Below, one piece after another: positions 3,684-62,744 of a stretch of DNA of 64,000 nt. Origin of the DNA: Escherichia phage RB3. The DNA is taken from sequence record KM606994; one strand, written 5' to 3'. Each line of letters begins with the position of its first letter. Position 1 is the stretch's first letter. The position numbers and the translations under genes are program-made. The notes beneath the pieces were generated by a model. It was not told the DNA's origin. It made no database searches and was given only the letters and a program-made list of their open reading frames with translations.

Positions 3684-5192
3684 ATGGATATTAAAGTACA
3701 TTTTCACGACTTCAGTCATGTACGCATCGATTGTGAAGAGAGCACGTTCCACGAATTAAGAGATTTCTTTTCGTTTGAGGCCGATGGATATAGATTTAAC
3801 CCTCGCTTCAGATATGGCAACTGGGATGGACGAATCCGTCTGTTAGATTATAATCGTCTTCTTCCATTCGGCTTAGTCGGGCAAATTAAAAAGTTCTGTG
3901 ATAACTTTGGCTATAAAGCTTGGATTGACCCGCAAATTAACGAAAAAGAAGAATTATCAAGAAAAGATTTTGATGAATGGCTTTCTAAATTAGAAATCTA
4001 TTCAGGAAATAAAAGAATTGAACCGCACTGGTATCAAAAAGATGCAGTGTTCGAAGGATTAGTTAATCGTCGTAGAATTCTTAATCTTCCAACATCTGCA
4101 GGTAAATCTTTAATTCAAGCTTTGCTTGCGCGATATTATTTGGAAAATTATGAAGGTAAAATTCTTATCATTGTTCCAACAACTGCTTTAACAACTCAGA
4201 TGGCTGATGACTTCGTTGACTATCGTTTATTCAGTCATGCAATGATAAAGAAAATCGGCGGCGGAGCATCAAAAGATGATAAATATAAAAATGATGCACC
4301 AGTCGTTGTTGGTACATGGCAAACTGTAGTAAAACAACCAAAAGAATGGTTCTCACAATTTGGAATGATGATGAATGATGAATGTCATCTTGCTACAGGA
4401 AAAAGTATTTCATCTATCATATCAGGTTTAAATAACTGCATGTTCAAATTTGGTCTATCGGGTTCATTACGTGATGGCAAAGCCAATATCATGCAGTATG
4501 TTGGAATGTTTGGTGAAATATTTAAACCAGTAACGACTTCTAAATTAATGGAAGATGGACAAGTAACTGAGCTAAAAATTAATAGTATTTTTCTTCGCTA
4601 TCCCGATGAGTTCACTACTAAATTAAAGGGAAAAACTTACCAAGAAGAAATAAAAATTATTACTGGGCTTAGTAAAAGAAATAAATGGATCGCTAAATTA
4701 GCTATTAAGCTTGCACAAAAAGATGAAAACGCTTTTGTCATGTTTAAACATGTATCGCATGGTAAAGCTATTTTCGATTTAATTAAAAATGAATACGATA
4801 AAGTTTATTACGTATCAGGGGAAGTTGATACCGAAACCCGCAACGTAATGAAAACCTTAGCTGAAAATGGTAAAGGAATAATTATAGTAGCTAGTTATGG
4901 TGTATTTTCTACTGGTATTTCAGTTAAAAATCTGCATCACGTTGTTTTAGCGCACGGTGTTAAATCTAAAATTATTGTATTGCAAACAATCGGTCGTGTA
5001 TTACGTAAGCATGGTTCTAAAACAATCGCAACAGTCTGGGACCTCATAGATGATTGTGGTGTTAAGCCAAAATCTGCTAATACTAAAAAGAAATATGTTC
5101 ATTTGAACTATCTTTTAAAACACGGCATTGATCGTATTCAGCGCTACGCAGATGAAAAATTTAATTACGTAATGAAAACAGTTAATTTATAA
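3684..5192 (+). CDS. uvsW: UvsW DNA helicase
   Basis: 502 aa; helicase motif I PTSAGKS and motif II DECH. Confidence 0.9.
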   Translation: MDIKVHFHDFSHVRIDCEESTFHELRDFFSFEADGYRFNPRFRYGNWDGRIRLLDYNRLLPFGLVGQIKKFCDNFGYKAWIDPQINEKEELSRKDFDEWLSKLEIYSGNKRIEPHWYQKDAVFEGLVNRRRILNLPTSAGKSLIQALLARYYLENYEGKILIIVPTTALTTQMADDFVDYRLFSHAMIKKIGGGASKDDKYKNDAPVVVGTWQTVVKQPKEWFSQFGMMMNDECHLATGKSISSIISGLNNCMFKFGLSGSLRDGKANIMQYVGMFGEIFKPVTTSKLMEDGQVTELKINSIFLRYPDEFTTKLKGKTYQEEIKIITGLSKRNKWIAKLAIKLAQKDENAFVMFKHVSHGKAIFDLIKNEYDKVYYVSGEVDTETRNVMKTLAENGKGIIIVASYGVFSTGISVKNLHHVVLAHGVKSKIIVLQTIGRVLRKHGSKTIATVWDLIDDCGVKPKSANTKKKYVHLNYLLKHGIDRIQRYADEKFNYVMKTVNL

Positions 5193-57833: not shown

Positions 57834-58469
57834 TCACAGTTCAGATGCTACAGCGATTACTGCTTCAATGTTTTCTGCCGAGCGTTTAATGTCAAGATAC
57901 ACATTACCGTTTTTAGCGATTTTACATGACATTCCGATGTCAGTAAATTTCTGAATATGATGTTCCATCATTTTGTATCCAAAAATTCGCATATTTCCAT
58001 TGTTGTTAATTTCAAAATTGCGAATTCCGTGAGTGCGTTTTTCTAAAATAGCGAGATAATTACTACGATAAGTTTCAACCTTTTTAAGAACAAATCCATT
58101 TTCATCTAAAAGTTTTAACATGAAGTCTTTATCTTCTTTCATATCAGAAGTAATCTCGCGAGCTTTACGAGTTGCTCGTTTTTTCAGCAGTTCCGGAGCA
58201 TTTTCCTGTGCATATAAAGTTGCTGCATTTGAAATAATATCCTGAGCTTCACCAGTAATGATTAATCCATCACCAGATTTCTCCACCAGGCCTTTTTTAA
58301 TCAATACCCCAATATTACTATTAACTACTGCGTTACCTAAATCTGGATGCACCTCACGAACTTCTGCAGCTGTAATGAAATCTTTCTTAGCAATAGTAAT
58401 TAAAATCGCAGCAGTTTTTTCATTCAGAACATCGTTAGAAGCTTTGATGATGTAAGTTACTTTAGACAT
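57834..58469 (-). CDS. motA: middle transcription activator MotA
   Basis: 211 aa; early promoter upstream. Confidence 0.9.
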   Translation of the reverse strand: MSKVTYIIKASNDVLNEKTAAILITIAKKDFITAAEVREVHPDLGNAVVNSNIGVLIKKGLVEKSGDGLIITGEAQDIISNAATLYAQENAPELLKKRATRKAREITSDMKEDKDFMLKLLDENGFVLKKVETYRSNYLAILEKRTHGIRNFEINNNGNMRIFGYKMMEHHIQKFTDIGMSCKIAKNGNVYLDIKRSAENIEAVIAVASEL

Positions 58470-58510
58470 TTTCTAATCTCCGTAATTCTGTATCAGTAGT
58501 TGATAGTTGT

Positions 58511-58540
58511 ATAGTACCACAGTATGCTTTGGTTGTAAAC
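58511..58540 (-). promoter_or_regulatory. T4-type early promoter of motA
   Basis: TTTTTTTCACAAAAC-GGTTTAC-18 nt-TACTAT on minus strand. Confidence 0.6.
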
Positions 58541-58561
58541 CGTTTTGTGAAAAAAATTTTT

Positions 58562-58592
58562 AAATAAAAAAGGGAGAGCCTCGGCTCTCCCT
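58562..58592 (-). terminator. intrinsic terminator downstream of the motA.1-position ORF
   Basis: GGGAGAGCC-loop-GGCUCUCCC followed by TTTTTTATTT on minus strand. Confidence 0.7.
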
Positions 58593-58596
58593 AAAA

Positions 58597-58746
58597 TTAC
58601 TGCATGACTGTGATAACTGTCATGATAACACGTTGAATTCCGAACGCAAGAAGACCTCCTGCTACAGCTGGAACAACGCCTAACCCCGCCAGTAAAATGC
58701 TACCAGATACTAATGCAGCGCTTGTAATACCAATGAATGGACTCAT
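58597..58746 (-). CDS. small hydrophobic membrane protein (motA.1 position)
   Basis: Hand-translated MSPFIGITSAALVSGSILLAGLGVVPAVAGGLLAFGIQRVIMTVITVMQ; ATGA overlap with gene 52 stop; terminator downstream. Confidence 0.45.
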   Translation of the reverse strand: MSPFIGITSAALVSGSILLAGLGVVPAVAGGLLAFGIQRVIMTVITVMQ

Positions 58747-60071
58747 TTGATTTCCTCTAAATCTTTGGTGTATTCTGTAACTACATCAGTAGTTTTCCAA
58801 TATTCGTTTTCTTCTTTTTTAGCTTTAGCTTCTTCAGCAAGTTTCTTCGCTTCATCGGAAGTCATATGAAAAATATTCATTCCAACTAGTTTATCAACAT
58901 AAGAAGAATACATATCAATTTTCGAAAGTTCTTCGGTCAGTTCTTTACGAGTTTTACCCTGTACAACAATTTCACCTGAAATTACTTTCTTAATGAAATG
59001 CGCCTTGGCAAAGGCTAAACGAAAAGCTGATTCAGTTTCTTTGATTTTGTTATCAATTCGTTTTTGGACATAAGTTTTACGAACTTCAACAAAGTCTTTA
59101 ATTAAATCAACTACGTTATCGTAAACTTGCAGTTTTCCTTTCTCATTAATAACCGTAATATTCTGAGAACGACGCTCAATCAACCCAAAGTCTTTCATAA
59201 TTTTTGCATGGCGTTCTTCTTCATTATCGCTCAAAGAATATTCTTTACGGAATTTAACTTTGAACCCAAAACCATGCTCACCACAAGCATCATCCCATGT
59301 AATGAAGCCTTTATCTTCAAGTGGGTCTAAGATTTTACTCACATAAGTTTCACGATCATACTTATACGGAATCTCAGTGATATGCATTTGAGTTCGTGAA
59401 GTAAACTTATATGTTCCACGAATTTCATATTGGCCATCAATCTCAACGACTTCACCACGAAATTCTGGGAATTCTACCTTCGGTTTAGTTACTTTCTTTC
59501 CTTGAAGAGCTTGTAATACAGCTTTCTTGACAGAAGAAACACTATGAGGAAGAATGTAAGTTGCATAACCAGTTGCAATACCGGAAACGCCATTAAGAAG
59601 AACAGTAGGAATAATAGGCAAATAGAAAGCAGGCGGAATATGTTCTTTATCTTGATGTACCGGAGCATATTCAGTATCTTTATATACGTTATAGAAATTT
59701 TTACTTACACGAGCAAAAATATAACGACTTGCCGCTGCCTTTTGGACAGTACGAGAACCAAAGTTTCCTTGACCGTCTAACAAAGGAAAGTTATTATTCC
59801 AAGTATTAGCCATCAAAGCCCCCGCATCTTGTGCAGAGTTTTCACCATGATGATATCCAAGGTCAGCTACACCACCTGCAATAGAAGCAAGTTTGTGAAA
59901 CTTATCTTTATTTCCTCGCGCCAAATCAAGAGCTCGAGCAATAACAAATCGTTGAACTGGCTTAAATCCATCAATCATATTTGGAATAGCACGATTTTCA
60001 ACCGTGTACATAGCATAAGCCAATGCTTCATTATCAATGATACTTTTTAAATCGCGATTATTCAGTTGCAT
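58743..60071 (-). CDS. 52: topoisomerase II medium subunit gp52
   Basis: 442 aa, equal to T4 gp52. Confidence 0.9.
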   Translation of the reverse strand: MQLNNRDLKSIIDNEALAYAMYTVENRAIPNMIDGFKPVQRFVIARALDLARGNKDKFHKLASIAGGVADLGYHHGENSAQDAGALMANTWNNNFPLLDGQGNFGSRTVQKAAASRYIFARVSKNFYNVYKDTEYAPVHQDKEHIPPAFYLPIIPTVLLNGVSGIATGYATYILPHSVSSVKKAVLQALQGKKVTKPKVEFPEFRGEVVEIDGQYEIRGTYKFTSRTQMHITEIPYKYDRETYVSKILDPLEDKGFITWDDACGEHGFGFKVKFRKEYSLSDNEEERHAKIMKDFGLIERRSQNITVINEKGKLQVYDNVVDLIKDFVEVRKTYVQKRIDNKIKETESAFRLAFAKAHFIKKVISGEIVVQGKTRKELTEELSKIDMYSSYVDKLVGMNIFHMTSDEAKKLAEEAKAKKEENEYWKTTDVVTEYTKDLEEIK

Positions 60072-60075
60072 AAAT

Positions 60076-60216
60076 TTACCATACTAGTGAATGTAGTGCC
60101 ATAATAACATCAGAAATGAAAAGCACGACTTGAATTAATCCGAACATTACTCCATAATATAGTGCTACTAATAAAGTAGCAAGGGCTAATGAATAGCCCA
60201 AGATTTTCTTAATCAT
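60076..60216 (-). CDS. small hydrophobic membrane protein (52.1 position)
   Basis: Hand-translated MIKKILGYSLALATLLVALYYGVMFGLIQVVLFISDVIMALHSLVW; overlaps ac end. Confidence 0.4.
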   Translation of the reverse strand: MIKKILGYSLALATLLVALYYGVMFGLIQVVLFISDVIMALHSLVW

Positions 60217-60367
60217 TAGTAGATAACAACACAAATGTTAAATATGCACACATACCCTGAGCTAAAGCTTGCGAAAACACACTGCTGGCATCAATACAGA
60301 TAGTTAAAACACATGCTACTATCCAACAAATAAATGAAATAACTCCTAATAATTTTGCAATATTCAT
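60209..60367 (-). CDS. ac: small membrane protein, Ac (acridine resistance) candidate
   Basis: Hand-translated 52 aa MNIAKLLGVISFICWIVACVLTICIDASSVFSQALAQGMCAYLTFVLLSTND; T4 Ac is ~51 aa at this position. Confidence 0.5.
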   Translation of the reverse strand: MNIAKLLGVISFICWIVACVLTICIDASSVFSQALAQGMCAYLTFVLLSTND

Positions 60368-60374
60368 ATTTTCC

Positions 60375-60455
60375 TCACTGGCGTCCGAAGACGCCTTTAG
60401 TTTTAAGATTATTACGATAGAACTGCATCACGTGTTCGTTGTGGAAATTACTCAT
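60375..60455 (-). CDS. stp: Stp peptide (anti-restriction; activator of PrrC anticodon nuclease)
   Basis: Hand-translated 26 aa [26 protein letters not shown], matching recalled T4 Stp; TAATG overlap with ndd stop. Confidence 0.8.
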
Positions 60456-60913
60456 TAATATGCCTGCAAAACGAATTTAAAATTATCAGCCAACATACGG
60501 TTCATTTCTTCAAGTGTTTGATACTCAGAATGATGATTACGAGTAAACGCTAAAGCTAACTGTCCTTTTCCAAATCCCGTCGTCAGAGGTTTCATCTTAG
60601 AAGCAGGCAGATAAAATACTGTGTATGGAACATTGGTATTTGCAATAGTACGTGCAAGCTGAGACCGACGTTGACGAATATGACTTAGAACTGCACTGAA
60701 TCCTTGCTTAGAACGCTGATTACCTACATAAAATCGTGCTGACACACATGGATTACTAAATGGACGACCATCTAATTTACTTACTAAAAAGTAAAATCCA
60801 GGTTTAGATAAAATATCTTTATGCGGAGTTCCCAAAAACCACTCACCGCCCTTGATTGTACCAATAACAGTAGCGCCTGCATTATTCAGATCAGTAACAG
60901 TCATGTATTTCAT
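60455..60913 (-). CDS. ndd: Ndd nucleoid disruption protein
   Basis: 152 aa from ATG (MKYMTVTDL...) with GAGGAAATTAAT SD; track start is further upstream. Confidence 0.7.
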
Positions 60914-60971
60914 ATTAATTTCCTCTAAATTATTTTCTACTCCAAGGCCGCATGAATACGCGGCCATTAAA

Positions 60972-61187
60972 TTAATCGTCGCAGTCGACGCTCAATTCCC
61001 AAAACTCTTCTACGGTATAAGTTTCAGTATCATTTTCAATACAGAAACGTTCATTACTGTTATTTGCTAAAGTAGCATTAACTGTCGGTTTCTCGCTAGT
61101 GCTCTTAAGAGGTGAAATACGAATTAACTGATCACCGTTATCTAAACAGAAAATTTCACCAACTTTTACATCTTTAAAACTTTTCAT
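60972..61187 (-). CDS. hypothetical protein
   Basis: ORF track 71 aa. Confidence 0.45.
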
Positions 61188-61302
61188 AATTCACCTCAAG
61201 GAGTATAAAATCCAAATGCAGTTGTTGACCATCCCATCCAATACGGAAAATTTGCACCAATGTAAAACATGAGAATATAAAACCAACCGCTCAGCAAATT
61301 CA

Positions 61303-61500
61303 TCATTTTACACCATTCCAAATTGTTTCAATCACGGATTTTAAACCATTTTGATGAATATCAATTCCGACAACTGCCATCAAATAGATTCCAACTACAA
61401 CTGAACCCAAGGCGAAAATCAGCATGAAAATGAATAAAGCCGGAAAAATATTATCGAAAAACCATTCAATAAATGTAAAAGCACTACGTTTACGCTTCAT
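61303..61500 (-). CDS. small membrane protein
   Basis: Track start is TTG; ATG with GAGGAAAAT SD gives 65 aa with a central hydrophobic segment. Confidence 0.45.
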   Translation of the reverse strand: MKRKRSAFTFIEWFFDNIFPALFIFMLIFALGSVVVGIYLMAVVGIDIHQNGLKSVIETIWNGVK

Positions 61501-61507
61501 ATTTTCC

Positions 61508-61621
61508 TCACATAAATCCAAAATAAGCGTTTAATACATCAATCATTAAAACGATTGGGAATATACTCAAAACTATTAGTATTATAACTACATTCCATAT
61601 AGCTTTAACAATCTTTTTCAT
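61508..61621 (-). CDS. small membrane protein
   Basis: 37 aa MKKIVKAIWNVVIILIVLSIFPIVLMIDVLNAYFGFM; ATG with GGAGG SD and early promoter; track ORF (TTG start) is an over-call. Confidence 0.4.
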   Translation of the reverse strand: MKKIVKAIWNVVIILIVLSIFPIVLMIDVLNAYFGFM

Positions 61622-61649
61622 TTTCTGTTCCTCCGTAGTTGATAGGGTA

Positions 61650-61679
61650 ATAATACCACAGAGGAACAGTCTTGTAAAC
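61650..61679 (-). promoter_or_regulatory. T4-type early promoter
   Basis: GTTTAC-18 nt-TATTAT on minus strand, then GGAGG SD and ATG of the 37-aa ORF. Confidence 0.5.
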
Positions 61680-61895
61680 AACTTTTTAAAAATATTCGTA
61701 ATAAATGTGAATACCAATCACCACTGCCGAAACTTGTGCAACCCACCACGCACAAGCAATAAGTACAGAATTAAAAATTTTCATAATAACCTCATCACAA
61801 AAGTAAATGTTAAACAAATTAATGGAATACTAATTAACCAAACAAAACACCACCATAATGAACTCATAGTTCAATCTCAACGATTTTCATTTTAC

Positions 61896-62114
61896 TCAAT
61901 AATCCGCTAAAAGATCGACGATTGCATCACGAAGACACTTATTCGCAATACGTTTAAGAGCAATTTCAGTTTCTGGAGCATTTTGAATAATCATTGAATT
62001 CAATTCAGCCTCAGCAAACTGAAGTTCTTTAACTAATTCAGCTTTATATTTTCCTTGCCCTTTCTTAGCTTTTGCTCGTTTTAATTCAGCTGTAGTAAAC
62101 ATTTTATTCTCCAA
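61896..62114 (-). CDS. hypothetical protein
   Basis: ORF track 72 aa; early promoter and GGAGAATAAA SD upstream. Confidence 0.5.
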   Translation of the reverse strand: MENKMFTTAELKRAKAKKGQGKYKAELVKELQFAEAELNSMIIQNAPETEIALKRIANKCLRDAIVDLLADY

Positions 62115-62135
62115 ATCCGTATCAGTTGATAGTTG

Positions 62136-62166
62136 TATATTACCACAGTCCTTGTGGTATGTAAAC
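62136..62166 (-). promoter_or_regulatory. T4-type early promoter
   Basis: TTTTTTCACAAAAC-TGTTTAC-18 nt-TAATAT on minus strand. Confidence 0.55.
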
Positions 62167-62186
62167 AGTTTTGTGAAAAAATTTTT

Positions 62187-62744
62187 TTAAATGGAAAGAT
62201 ACCATCCATTGTAGTTGCTTTTTCTTACAACCTTACGAAGGTCTTCTCTATCACCGATGAATTTCGGAGTGTACTGGATGACACCTGGATGAATTTCTTT
62301 AGTGTTGAATATAATTATACAGTCAGCGACTTGGTGATTCAGAATGGGCCCTAGATTTATTCCAGAACCGTATGGATACTCTCCGCTGCATCCGGTTGTT
62401 ACCGAAATCCATCGTGAGTCAGTTTGATGTGTTTTGACTTCTACACGAAGCCCACAGTATTTTGGATGCGCCAATACATCCCATGCATATGTATATGGGT
62501 CATTAACATCCTCTTGGCCTTTGTTAACATACCCGCTTAGCCAATCTGCTACAAAAAATTCTGCGTACACAGCGATACGGCATCTTTCGATAACTTCTGC
62601 CTTATCCTGATTTGGGTTTTGTTTTAAAGAGTATCTTGCAGTATCAGCAATTTTGACCTTCATTTCATTGGTTAAATCGCTGTTCGATAGAGTAAATGTC
62701 GGAATCTGAAATAGTCTCTGTAGCCCCGGATTCGTTTTCTGCAT
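62187..62744 (-). CDS. denB: endonuclease IV
   Basis: 185 aa, equal to T4 DenB. Confidence 0.85.
   Translation of the reverse strand: MQKTNPGLQRLFQIPTFTLSNSDLTNEMKVKIADTARYSLKQNPNQDKAEVIERCRIAVYAEFFVADWLSGYVNKGQEDVNDPYTYAWDVLAHPKYCGLRVEVKTHQTDSRWISVTTGCSGEYPYGSGINLGPILNHQVADCIIIFNTKEIHPGVIQYTPKFIGDREDLRKVVRKSNYNGWYLSI

Follow-up and report, generated by a model that had tools for sequence, protein, structure and literature searches.

The D region of T4 and the corresponding locus in phage RB3

The genes considered here, eight micro-genes for small hydrophobic proteins in Escherichia phage RB3 (sequence record KM606994), have their closest described counterpart in the D region of phage T4, which lies between genes 52 and rIIB (NC_000866, T4p263–T4p275). 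Their T4 names date from the 1990s, and ac, the acridine-sensitivity gene, was placed in one of three T4 clusters of predicted membrane-protein genes (bioRxiv 10.1101/2025.06.30.662393). The 3.4-kb deletion saDelta9 removes 52.1, ac, stp, ndd, ndd.1–ndd.6 and denB; phages carrying it are produced at about 50% of the wild-type rate (Kutter et al., PMC6071114). The same deletion abolishes the phage-induced stimulation of phospholipid synthesis, especially that of phosphatidylglycerol, and the products of ndd.1–ndd.6 are described as unknown (PMC6071114). Two old physiological puzzles, acridine sensitivity and the phage-induced rise in phosphatidylglycerol, map to this region, which holds the genes of eight conserved, early-transcribed membrane micro-proteins of the best-studied phage.

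The analyzed DNA (the window) is a stretch of 64,000 nucleotides (nt) from RB3, and the micro-genes occupy positions 58597–61867 on its minus strand. Segment 58400–62200 is 100% identical to the Tequatrovirus phages RB5, RB6, RB7, RB9 and RB10, and at least 97% identical to many further T4-type phages. It is collinear with T4 and RB14; as in the annotated RB7, RB14 and T4 records, the minus strand carries every gene, in the T4 order: denB, an open reading frame (ORF) of 68 amino acids (aa), ndd.6, ndd.5, ndd.4, ndd.2a/ndd.3, ndd.2, ndd.1, ndd, stp, ac, 52.1, gene 52, motA.1 and motA, from upstream to downstream. The stretch is thus the T4-type D region between motA/52 and denB, and the eight micro-ORFs are the annotated T4 genes motA.1, 52.1, ac, ndd.2, ndd.2a(+ndd.3), ndd.4, ndd.5 and ndd.6. 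Gene order, strand, overlaps and the layout of early promoters and terminator are shared with T4, and the micro-proteins are nearly identical to their T4 counterparts (from 27/28 to 49/49 residues). Three differences are observed. A 65-aa gene is intact in the window and present as two fragments, ndd.3 and ndd.2a, in the T4 reference; the window Ac carries one additional Thr near the C-terminus; and an extra 68-aa soluble ORF, which T4 lacks, is located upstream of ndd.6.

An earlier sequence-only reading of the window had reported hydrophobic ORFs of 49, 46, 52, 37 and 65 aa, all of which exist as described on the minus strand, together with candidates of 28–32 aa, which are the annotated T4 genes ndd.5 (32 aa) and ndd.6 (28 aa). 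Its location of the cluster was right, although the end proposed at 61720 falls inside ndd.5 and the real end is 61867; every ORF that it listed is real, and one, ndd.2 (36 aa, 61196–61306), was missed. The view of these genes as accessory agrees with the residual phage production of saDelta9, which lacks everything from 52.1 to denB (PMC6071114). All the micro-ORFs had been named in T4, so the cluster is not new: the reading correctly rediscovered a gene set that is annotated, though functionally dark. As a discovery the cluster adds little. The analysis adds evidence that each ORF is coding, identifies conserved motifs and corrects ndd.2a to its 65-aa form.

Coding status of the micro-genes

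The micro-ORFs are genuine protein-coding genes under purifying selection; taken together with the membrane character of their products, this status is highly probable. Chance occurrence was estimated for ATG-initiated ORFs of 28–70 aa with a hydrophobic window of at least 2.0, using 1000 dinucleotide-preserving shuffles of segment 61196–61867. Four qualifying ORFs occupy 73.5% of the strand in this segment, while the shuffled sequences contained 0.28 ORFs on average with 5.4% coverage, and the observed values were reached in none of them. The minus strand of the whole window has 19 such ORFs, and eight of them fall within the 3.3-kb stretch.

Conservation was evaluated in 40 loci, comprising 37 loci with an Ndd homologue from IMG/VR (Ndd identity of 44–99%) plus those of RB7, RB14 and T4, and families were counted by iterative profile searches of their ORFs. 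Homologues were found in 34 loci for both 52.1 and ndd.4, in 23 for ndd.6, 21 for the 65-aa gene, 17 for ndd.2, at least 12 for ac, 11 for motA.1 and 8 for ndd.5, the latter confined to the eight Tequatrovirus loci. Further ac homologues with the motif SSV.SQ..AQ came from a reciprocal search. The relative order of the families is constant, and they remain syntenic even where Ndd is only 44–62% identical; 52.1 lies directly upstream of gene 52 in every locus that has it. Lack of conservation in related phages had been named beforehand as evidence that would speak against these genes; instead, the families are conserved and evolve under purifying selection.

Median ratios of non-synonymous to synonymous substitution (dN/dS, Nei–Gojobori method, NG86) are 0.05–0.38 for the micro-ORFs (motA.1, 0.07; 52.1, 0.32; ndd.2, 0.30; ndd.4, 0.25; ndd.6, 0.34), compared with 0.23 for ndd, 0.22 for denB and 0.11 for gene 52; these values are rough, since the homologues were chosen by protein similarity and dS is near saturation in distant pairs. 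A frame control is independent of both factors: the +1 and +2 readings of the same alignments give a higher pN/pS in every family. The mismatch pattern is coding-like (position 3 > position 1 > position 2). A tblastn search of 50,697 phage records retrieved 52.1 in 811 records, ndd.4 in 594, motA.1 in 493, and ndd.5 and ndd.6 in 492 each, and all matches belong to T4-like phages of enterobacteria. Transcripts of all the micro-genes are classed as early in a dual-omics study of T4 (PMC9697503, Table S2).

Protein families and membrane character

Hardly anything beyond one or two hydrophobic helices is specified by each micro-gene. The best 19-residue Kyte–Doolittle window reaches 2.2–3.1 in seven of the micro-ORFs and 1.2 in the 36-aa ndd.2. 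The product of motA.1 (58597–58746), a hydrophobic, Gly/Ala-rich protein of 49 aa, belongs to PHROG 3487 (E = 2e-31) and is identical to its T4 counterpart in 49/49 residues. Gene 52.1 (60076–60216) encodes a hydrophobic protein of 46 aa with the motif YYG...VLFISDVI....SL.W; it matches Pfam DUF7396 over model positions 1–46 of 46 (81.9 bits against a cut-off of 27) and PHROG 3595. The aromatic-rich ndd.2 product (61196–61306) has the motif G.N.PYW.G and belongs to PHROG 4135 (E = 2e-24). Single transmembrane (TM) helices are found in the products of ndd.4 (61508–61621, 37 aa, PHROG 3098), ndd.5 (61686–61784, 32 aa, PHROG 5011, E = 9e-26) and ndd.6 (61781–61867, 28 aa, PHROG 8851); the alignment motif of ndd.4 is MKK.LK.IWN...IFP.V..ID, and that of ndd.6 is SSK.WC.IW...IP.IC.

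The N-terminus of the 65-aa protein (61303–61500) is basic (MKRKRS); a long hydrophobic helix follows, and the C-terminal motif GLKSV(V/I)E.IWNG is invariant. The AlphaFold2 (AF2) model of the protein consists of helix 5–17 and long helix 19–64, with a predicted local distance difference test score (pLDDT) of 81. It matches Pfam DUF7248, the T4 Ndd.2a family (67.3 bits against a cut-off of 27), and PHROG 2401; positions 4–57 of the 58-position DUF7248 model align with residues 6–63. This nearly full-length match indicates that 65 aa, and not the 40 aa of the T4 fragment, is the normal length of the family.

The conserved positions form sequence motifs that include polar and aromatic residues (LFISDV...W, IFP.V..ID, GLKSVVE.IWNG, WC.IW...IP.IC, N.PYW.G). 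Searches of Pfam, PHROGs, NCBIfam and PADLOC for function returned only domains of unknown function (DUF) or other families of unknown function, each micro-protein falling into its own, so that the description of the set as poorly characterized holds for every family. No holin, toxin or superinfection-exclusion (Imm/Sp) family was matched in Pfam, PHROG or NCBIfam. Among the PADLOC defence and anti-defence models the sole hit was a TM-segment match of ndd.4 to KwaA (13.8 bits, E = 0.008), which was judged compositional. Superinfection exclusion and modulation of defence, both put forward from the sequence at the outset, gained nothing specific in their favour. Searches of solved structures with 52.1 and ndd.4 were empty up to E = 10, and those with the 65-aa protein and motA.1 each gave a single insignificant TM-segment match.

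The search with the 65-aa protein matched only proteins of T4-like phages, and the micro-protein families as a whole appear to be restricted to this group. The 'outer membrane' and 'periplasmic' labels in GenBank are old localization predictions, and the predicted helices would fit insertion into the inner membrane.

A natural chimera of two adjacent micro-genes is present in Shigella phage Sf25, whose gp120 (62 aa) begins as ndd.4 (N-terminal half, MKKIIKAIWNVVIILVVLSIFPIVLMID) and ends as ndd.2a (C-terminal half, VVGIYLMAVVGMDIHQNGLKSVVETIWNGVK).

Packing and expression signals

Two operon-like runs hold the micro-genes, placed head to tail and translationally coupled; sigma-70-type T4 early promoters precede the runs, and a terminator ends them past motA.1. 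Four-nucleotide ATGA overlaps are present at three junctions (gene 52/motA.1, 65-aa gene/ndd.2 and ndd.6/ndd.5), and the ndd/stp junction is TAATG. Genes ac and 52.1 overlap by 8 nt, and the 52.1 stop codon is 4 nt ahead of the gene 52 start codon. The overlaps and promoters noticed in the sequence-only reading are therefore real, and its attribution of individual Shine–Dalgarno (SD) sequences applies to six of the eight micro-ORFs, which are preceded by SD-like matches of at least 4 nt (GGAGG in the case of ndd.4). The exceptions are ndd.6, with only GAG as an SD-like sequence, and 52.1, which has none and relies on its overlap with ac.

The early-promoter consensus consists of an A/T-rich upstream element, GTTTACA, a spacer of 17 nt and a TG-extended TAnTAT. 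The internal promoter (61678–61650), with an A/T-rich upstream element, GTTTACA, 17 nt and TGGTATTAT, matches 10 of the 12 consensus positions and has the TG extension; it drives ndd.4, the first gene past it, and the genes downstream. The other promoter of this type (62137–62165, minus strand) is located upstream of the 68-aa ORF, ndd.6 and ndd.5. Both align with the motA early promoter across about 60 nt, and the internal one also aligns with the orf68 early promoter. The transcription unit of gene 52 and motA.1 is closed by an intrinsic terminator (58592–58571; nine-pair stem followed by a T run; −17.9 kcal/mol, z = −3.9) just upstream of the motA early promoter. A consensus pattern search of the region for MotA-box middle promoters found none, and in an Rfam scan of it the only matches, two in number, were below threshold and due to chance.

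An extended consensus of about 60 nt is common to three early promoters on the minus strand (window 62095–62200, 61614–61705 and 58462–58570): an A/T-rich upstream element, GTTTACA, CTGTGGTAnTAT and then CTATCAACT.

Two intra-operon hairpins were also observed on the minus strand. The first, at 60380–60395 (GGCGUC-UUCG-GACGCC, −11.5 kcal/mol), has a C(UUCG)G tetraloop and is located in the last stp codons, just upstream of the ac SD sequence. The second, at 60946–60965, has a GGCCGCG/CGCGGCC stem and lies between ndd.1 and ndd (−15.6 kcal/mol, z = −3.8). Both may be elements of RNA stability or processing.

Ac and drug sensitivity

Gene ac (60209–60367, 52 aa; annotated as ac in RB7, RB14 and T4) is the only micro-gene with a known phenotype. 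T4 without ac is acriflavine-resistant, and expression of Ac in E. coli lowers viability by 3 log with acriflavine and by 4 log with ampicillin (bioRxiv 10.1101/2025.06.30.662393). In the same work a hairpin turn was placed at D26–A27, the G38R change conferred resistance, and Ac was proposed to block efflux through AcrAB-TolC; the efflux interpretation was repeated in a 2026 PNAS paper (PMC13250531).

The window protein matches PHROG 2501 over residues 1–51 (E = 3.7e-25), and 49 of its residues are identical to T4 Ac, with one inserted Thr. The variant of phage PP01 with the additional Thr was phenotypically silent, its acriflavine sensitivity being reported as for T4 Ac (bioRxiv 10.1101/2025.06.30.662393). 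The gene lies between stp and 52.1/gene 52, as in T4. The AF2 model (pLDDT 80) is a two-helix hairpin with helix 3–24, turn 25–27 and helix 28–51, and D26, A27 and G38 are all present. Homology, position and the modelled hairpin with these three residues mark the window Ac as a member of the T4 Ac family. The ORF first described from the sequence as Ac-like is Ac itself, and the idea of a role in drug sensitivity was right for that one gene.

A phmmer search with Ac against all PDB chains gave no match at E up to 10. The PDB includes AcrB–AcrZ complexes. A relationship of either Ac or 52.1 to AcrZ was dropped, the search with 52.1 being equally empty. Relatives of Ac amount to three clusters among 1.84 billion representatives, plus two repeat-protein artefacts, and no close relative was found in 185,579 species genomes. 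A weak match of Ac to Bac51 was judged compositional.

A possible mode of action and its alternatives

Within minutes of infection the peptides would insert into the host inner membrane, and each would dock by helix–helix packing onto a particular host envelope machine, altering its activity. The target of Ac would be the AcrAB-TolC efflux pump; for at least one of the others it would probably be phospholipid synthesis or a stress or defence component associated with the membrane. The description as a whole, that of early, non-essential inner-membrane proteins with one or two helices which dock on host envelope machinery, is somewhat favoured; the docking mechanism taken by itself is, at best, evenly poised. 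Specific partners are preferred to non-specific membrane damage because conservation is seen at the level of motifs. In a bolder and rather doubtful version, the micro-proteins would be transmembrane 'plugs' with sequence specificity, a toolkit in which every member has its own inner-membrane machine of the host as target. Ac would inhibit AcrB, one of 52.1 or ndd.2–ndd.6 would be the long-sought T4 factor that shifts phospholipid synthesis of the host towards phosphatidylglycerol, and others would disarm membrane-acting abortive-infection effectors. If so, these 3 kb would compactly supply natural peptides that inhibit proteins of efflux, lipid synthesis and defence.

Several points weigh against specific docking. 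The link between Ac and AcrB is itself a proposal, and no sequence similarity to AcrZ or to any solved chain was found. The phosphatidylglycerol phenotype of the 3.4-kb deletion may not stem from a micro-protein at all, because ndd, stp and denB are removed as well. The sa deletions, from which ac is also missing, are described as acridine-sensitive (PMC6071114), unlike the resistant ac knock-out (bioRxiv 10.1101/2025.06.30.662393); if both descriptions are right, another gene of the cluster must protect against acridines. None of the eight proteins was detected in the T4 proteome (all are listed as 'NA'), in which Ndd and Ndd.1 were found, the latter early (PMC9697503). This is weak evidence, since tiny hydrophobic proteins give few tryptic peptides. 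A literature search retrieved no ribosome-profiling study of T4. Genome-wide fitness screens of T4 (CRISPRi-ART, HIDEN-SEQ) do not mention these genes, as far as their main texts are concerned.

The alternative that survives best, although it is unlikely, is that the micro-proteins are anti-defence factors, each neutralizing a membrane-embedded abortive-infection effector of the host or a prophage, as rIIA/rIIB act against RexAB; it is a variant of the docking mechanism with other targets. It would explain the cassette-like turnover of the array. The gene content of the slot varies strongly among relatives, where other two-helix micro-families replace the T4 ones; swapping of ndd.4/.5 mediated by promoter/stem-loop elements has been described (PMC4122927), the neighbours stp (EcoprrI/PrrC), rIIB, denB and ndd are host-conflict genes, and the region is dispensable on laboratory strains (PMC6071114). 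However, no credible PADLOC match to a defence or anti-defence family was obtained, and the main text of a T4 transposon screen against defence systems is silent on these genes. Moreover, 52.1 and ndd.4 are broadly conserved rather than patchy, which is a better fit to a constant host target.

Non-specific perturbation of the membrane by holin-like or type I toxin-like peptides, aiding shut-off, exclusion or lysis timing, is improbable. Small hydrophobic peptides of one or two helices would suit it, early T4 work interpreted the ac phenotype as raised permeability to dyes, and many small immediate-early genes of T4 are lethal to the host when cloned (PMC6071114). Nevertheless, it is particular motifs and not mere hydrophobicity that are conserved, no similarity to holin, Imm, Sp or toxin families was found, and the known lysis and exclusion genes of T4 lie elsewhere. 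The genes are expressed early, yet infected cells stay energized long enough for phage production, and loss of the whole region costs only about half of its rate.

Still less probable is a tethering function, in which 52.1 and motA.1 would attach the gene 52 topoisomerase and the replication complex to the membrane. Gene 52 (58743–60071), which encodes the medium subunit of DNA topoisomerase II, has micro-membrane-protein genes on both flanks: the 52.1 stop codon closely precedes its start, its own stop overlaps the motA.1 start, and where a 52.1 homologue is missing another hydrophobic micro-ORF stands directly upstream. Acridine resistance also maps to the topoisomerase genes 39 and 60. This argument is one of synteny and coupled translation alone; saDelta9 is viable without 52.1, and motA.1 is found in just 11 of the 40 loci.

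Finally, the ORFs could be chance frames that are never translated, in AT-rich DNA with a regulatory or spacer role (promoter/stem-loop shuffling elements, for instance). This would agree with their very short length (28–65 aa), their absence from T4 proteomics and from the annotation of many deposited genomes, and the chance origin of hydrophobic ORFs in T-rich frames (this strand has 11 others across the window, most of them within larger genes). The explanation is, however, effectively refuted by the conservation data and has become extremely improbable, given packing that no shuffle reproduced, syntenic families with conserved amino acids across phages with distant Ndd proteins, dN/dS well under 1 with its minimum in the annotated frame, the presence of SD sequences and of stop codons coupled to start codons, existing Pfam and PHROG families, and the genetics behind ac.

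Gene models and annotation of the locus

In the T4 reference, ndd.3 (26 aa) and ndd.2a (40 aa) correspond to two halves of the 65-aa gene that is intact in the window (NC_000866 locus extract, 4049–4129 and 3933–4055, respectively). The split is caused by one G missing from codon 2. This deletion occurs only in three records derived from the original T4 sequence; the extra base is present in 420 other records, including two re-sequenced T4 genomes and T4T, and one of the re-sequenced genomes annotates a coding sequence of 198 nt (717–914 of its locus extract). Since the missing G is limited to records of this origin, a single-base error in the reference is the probable origin of 'ndd.3', which would be an artefact. 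In RB7 the gene is under-called, its 40-aa annotation being a copy of the truncated form.

In many of the T4-like genomes on deposit, nothing is annotated over ndd.4, ndd.6, ndd.5, 52.1 or motA.1 (window 58597–61867). Automated annotation often drops ndd.4, ndd.6 and motA.1, and both ndd.4 and ndd.6 are missing from a T4 record annotated with Pyrodigal. The 52.1 ORF bears the name 'acridine resistance' in some records.

Neighbouring genes and plasticity of the array

The remaining genes of the stretch encode proteins of other kinds. The stp gene (60375–60455) specifies a non-hydrophobic peptide of 26 aa, identical to T4 Stp (Pfam PF08133, 75.3 bits). The ndd.1 product (60972–61187, 71 aa, PHROG 2183) is acidic and soluble, with a grand average of hydropathy (GRAVY) of −0.54, and is not a membrane protein. 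The soluble 68-aa ORF (61896–62102) is RB32ORF266c-like and opens the cassette that the two early promoters enclose.

The nucleoid disruption protein Ndd (60455–60913) is also soluble. In the RB7 annotation ndd begins at an upstream ATG (window 60455–60967), which gives 170 aa, and this reading crosses the intergenic hairpin. The T4 start (MKYMTV, with the ATG ending at 60913) is likelier because it is preceded by a good SD sequence, AGAGGA; the product would then be of 151–152 aa.

The micro-genes belong to a plastic array of micro-membrane-protein cassettes found throughout T4-like phages. In divergent members two further two-helix families of 50–61 aa were observed in the interval from ndd to 52 (e.g., at 4824–4985 of locus L010 and 4444–4617 of locus L021), with the motifs G(A/V)WVPS and MGYL...FER(I/L)..CGV.K. 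Both are absent from the window, where the interval is held by stp and ac. In another locus (L036, 2075–3468), denB and the 68-aa ORF are separated by an insertion of about 1.4 kb, which encodes ORFs of 202 aa and 263 aa, the latter with a DPPY motif typical of N6-adenine DNA methyltransferases.

Comparison with known systems

The layout of the cassettes fits the published model of shuffling between early-promoter/stem-loop (PeSL) elements, for which the ndd.4/.5 slot served as an example of exchange (Comeau et al., PMC4122927). As in that model, two near-identical early promoters bracket the 68-aa ORF/ndd.6/ndd.5 cassette in the window, and the content of the slot differs among T4, RB14 and the window. 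PeSL shuffling accounts for the evolution of the array and not for the function of its proteins.

The exclusion proteins Imm and Sp and the lysis-control proteins rI, rIII and t of T4 are likewise small phage-encoded envelope proteins, and Imm and Sp are also made early. They differ from the micro-proteins in that no homology is present, their genes occupy other parts of the genome, and the micro-gene region has no mapped exclusion or lysis phenotype.

Among bacterial proteins, the nearest parallel is provided by small regulatory proteins of the inner membrane such as AcrZ, which binds AcrB, and MgrB, which binds PhoQ. The micro-proteins are encoded by phages, and apparently only by T4-like ones; searches up to E = 10 gave no sequence similarity to any solved chain, the predicted form of Ac is a hairpin of two helices, and its proposed effect is inhibitory. 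The likeness consists in a size of about 30–50 aa, one or two TM helices and presumed binding to a large membrane protein, and in the case of Ac it extends to the proposed target, which is the very pump that AcrZ binds.

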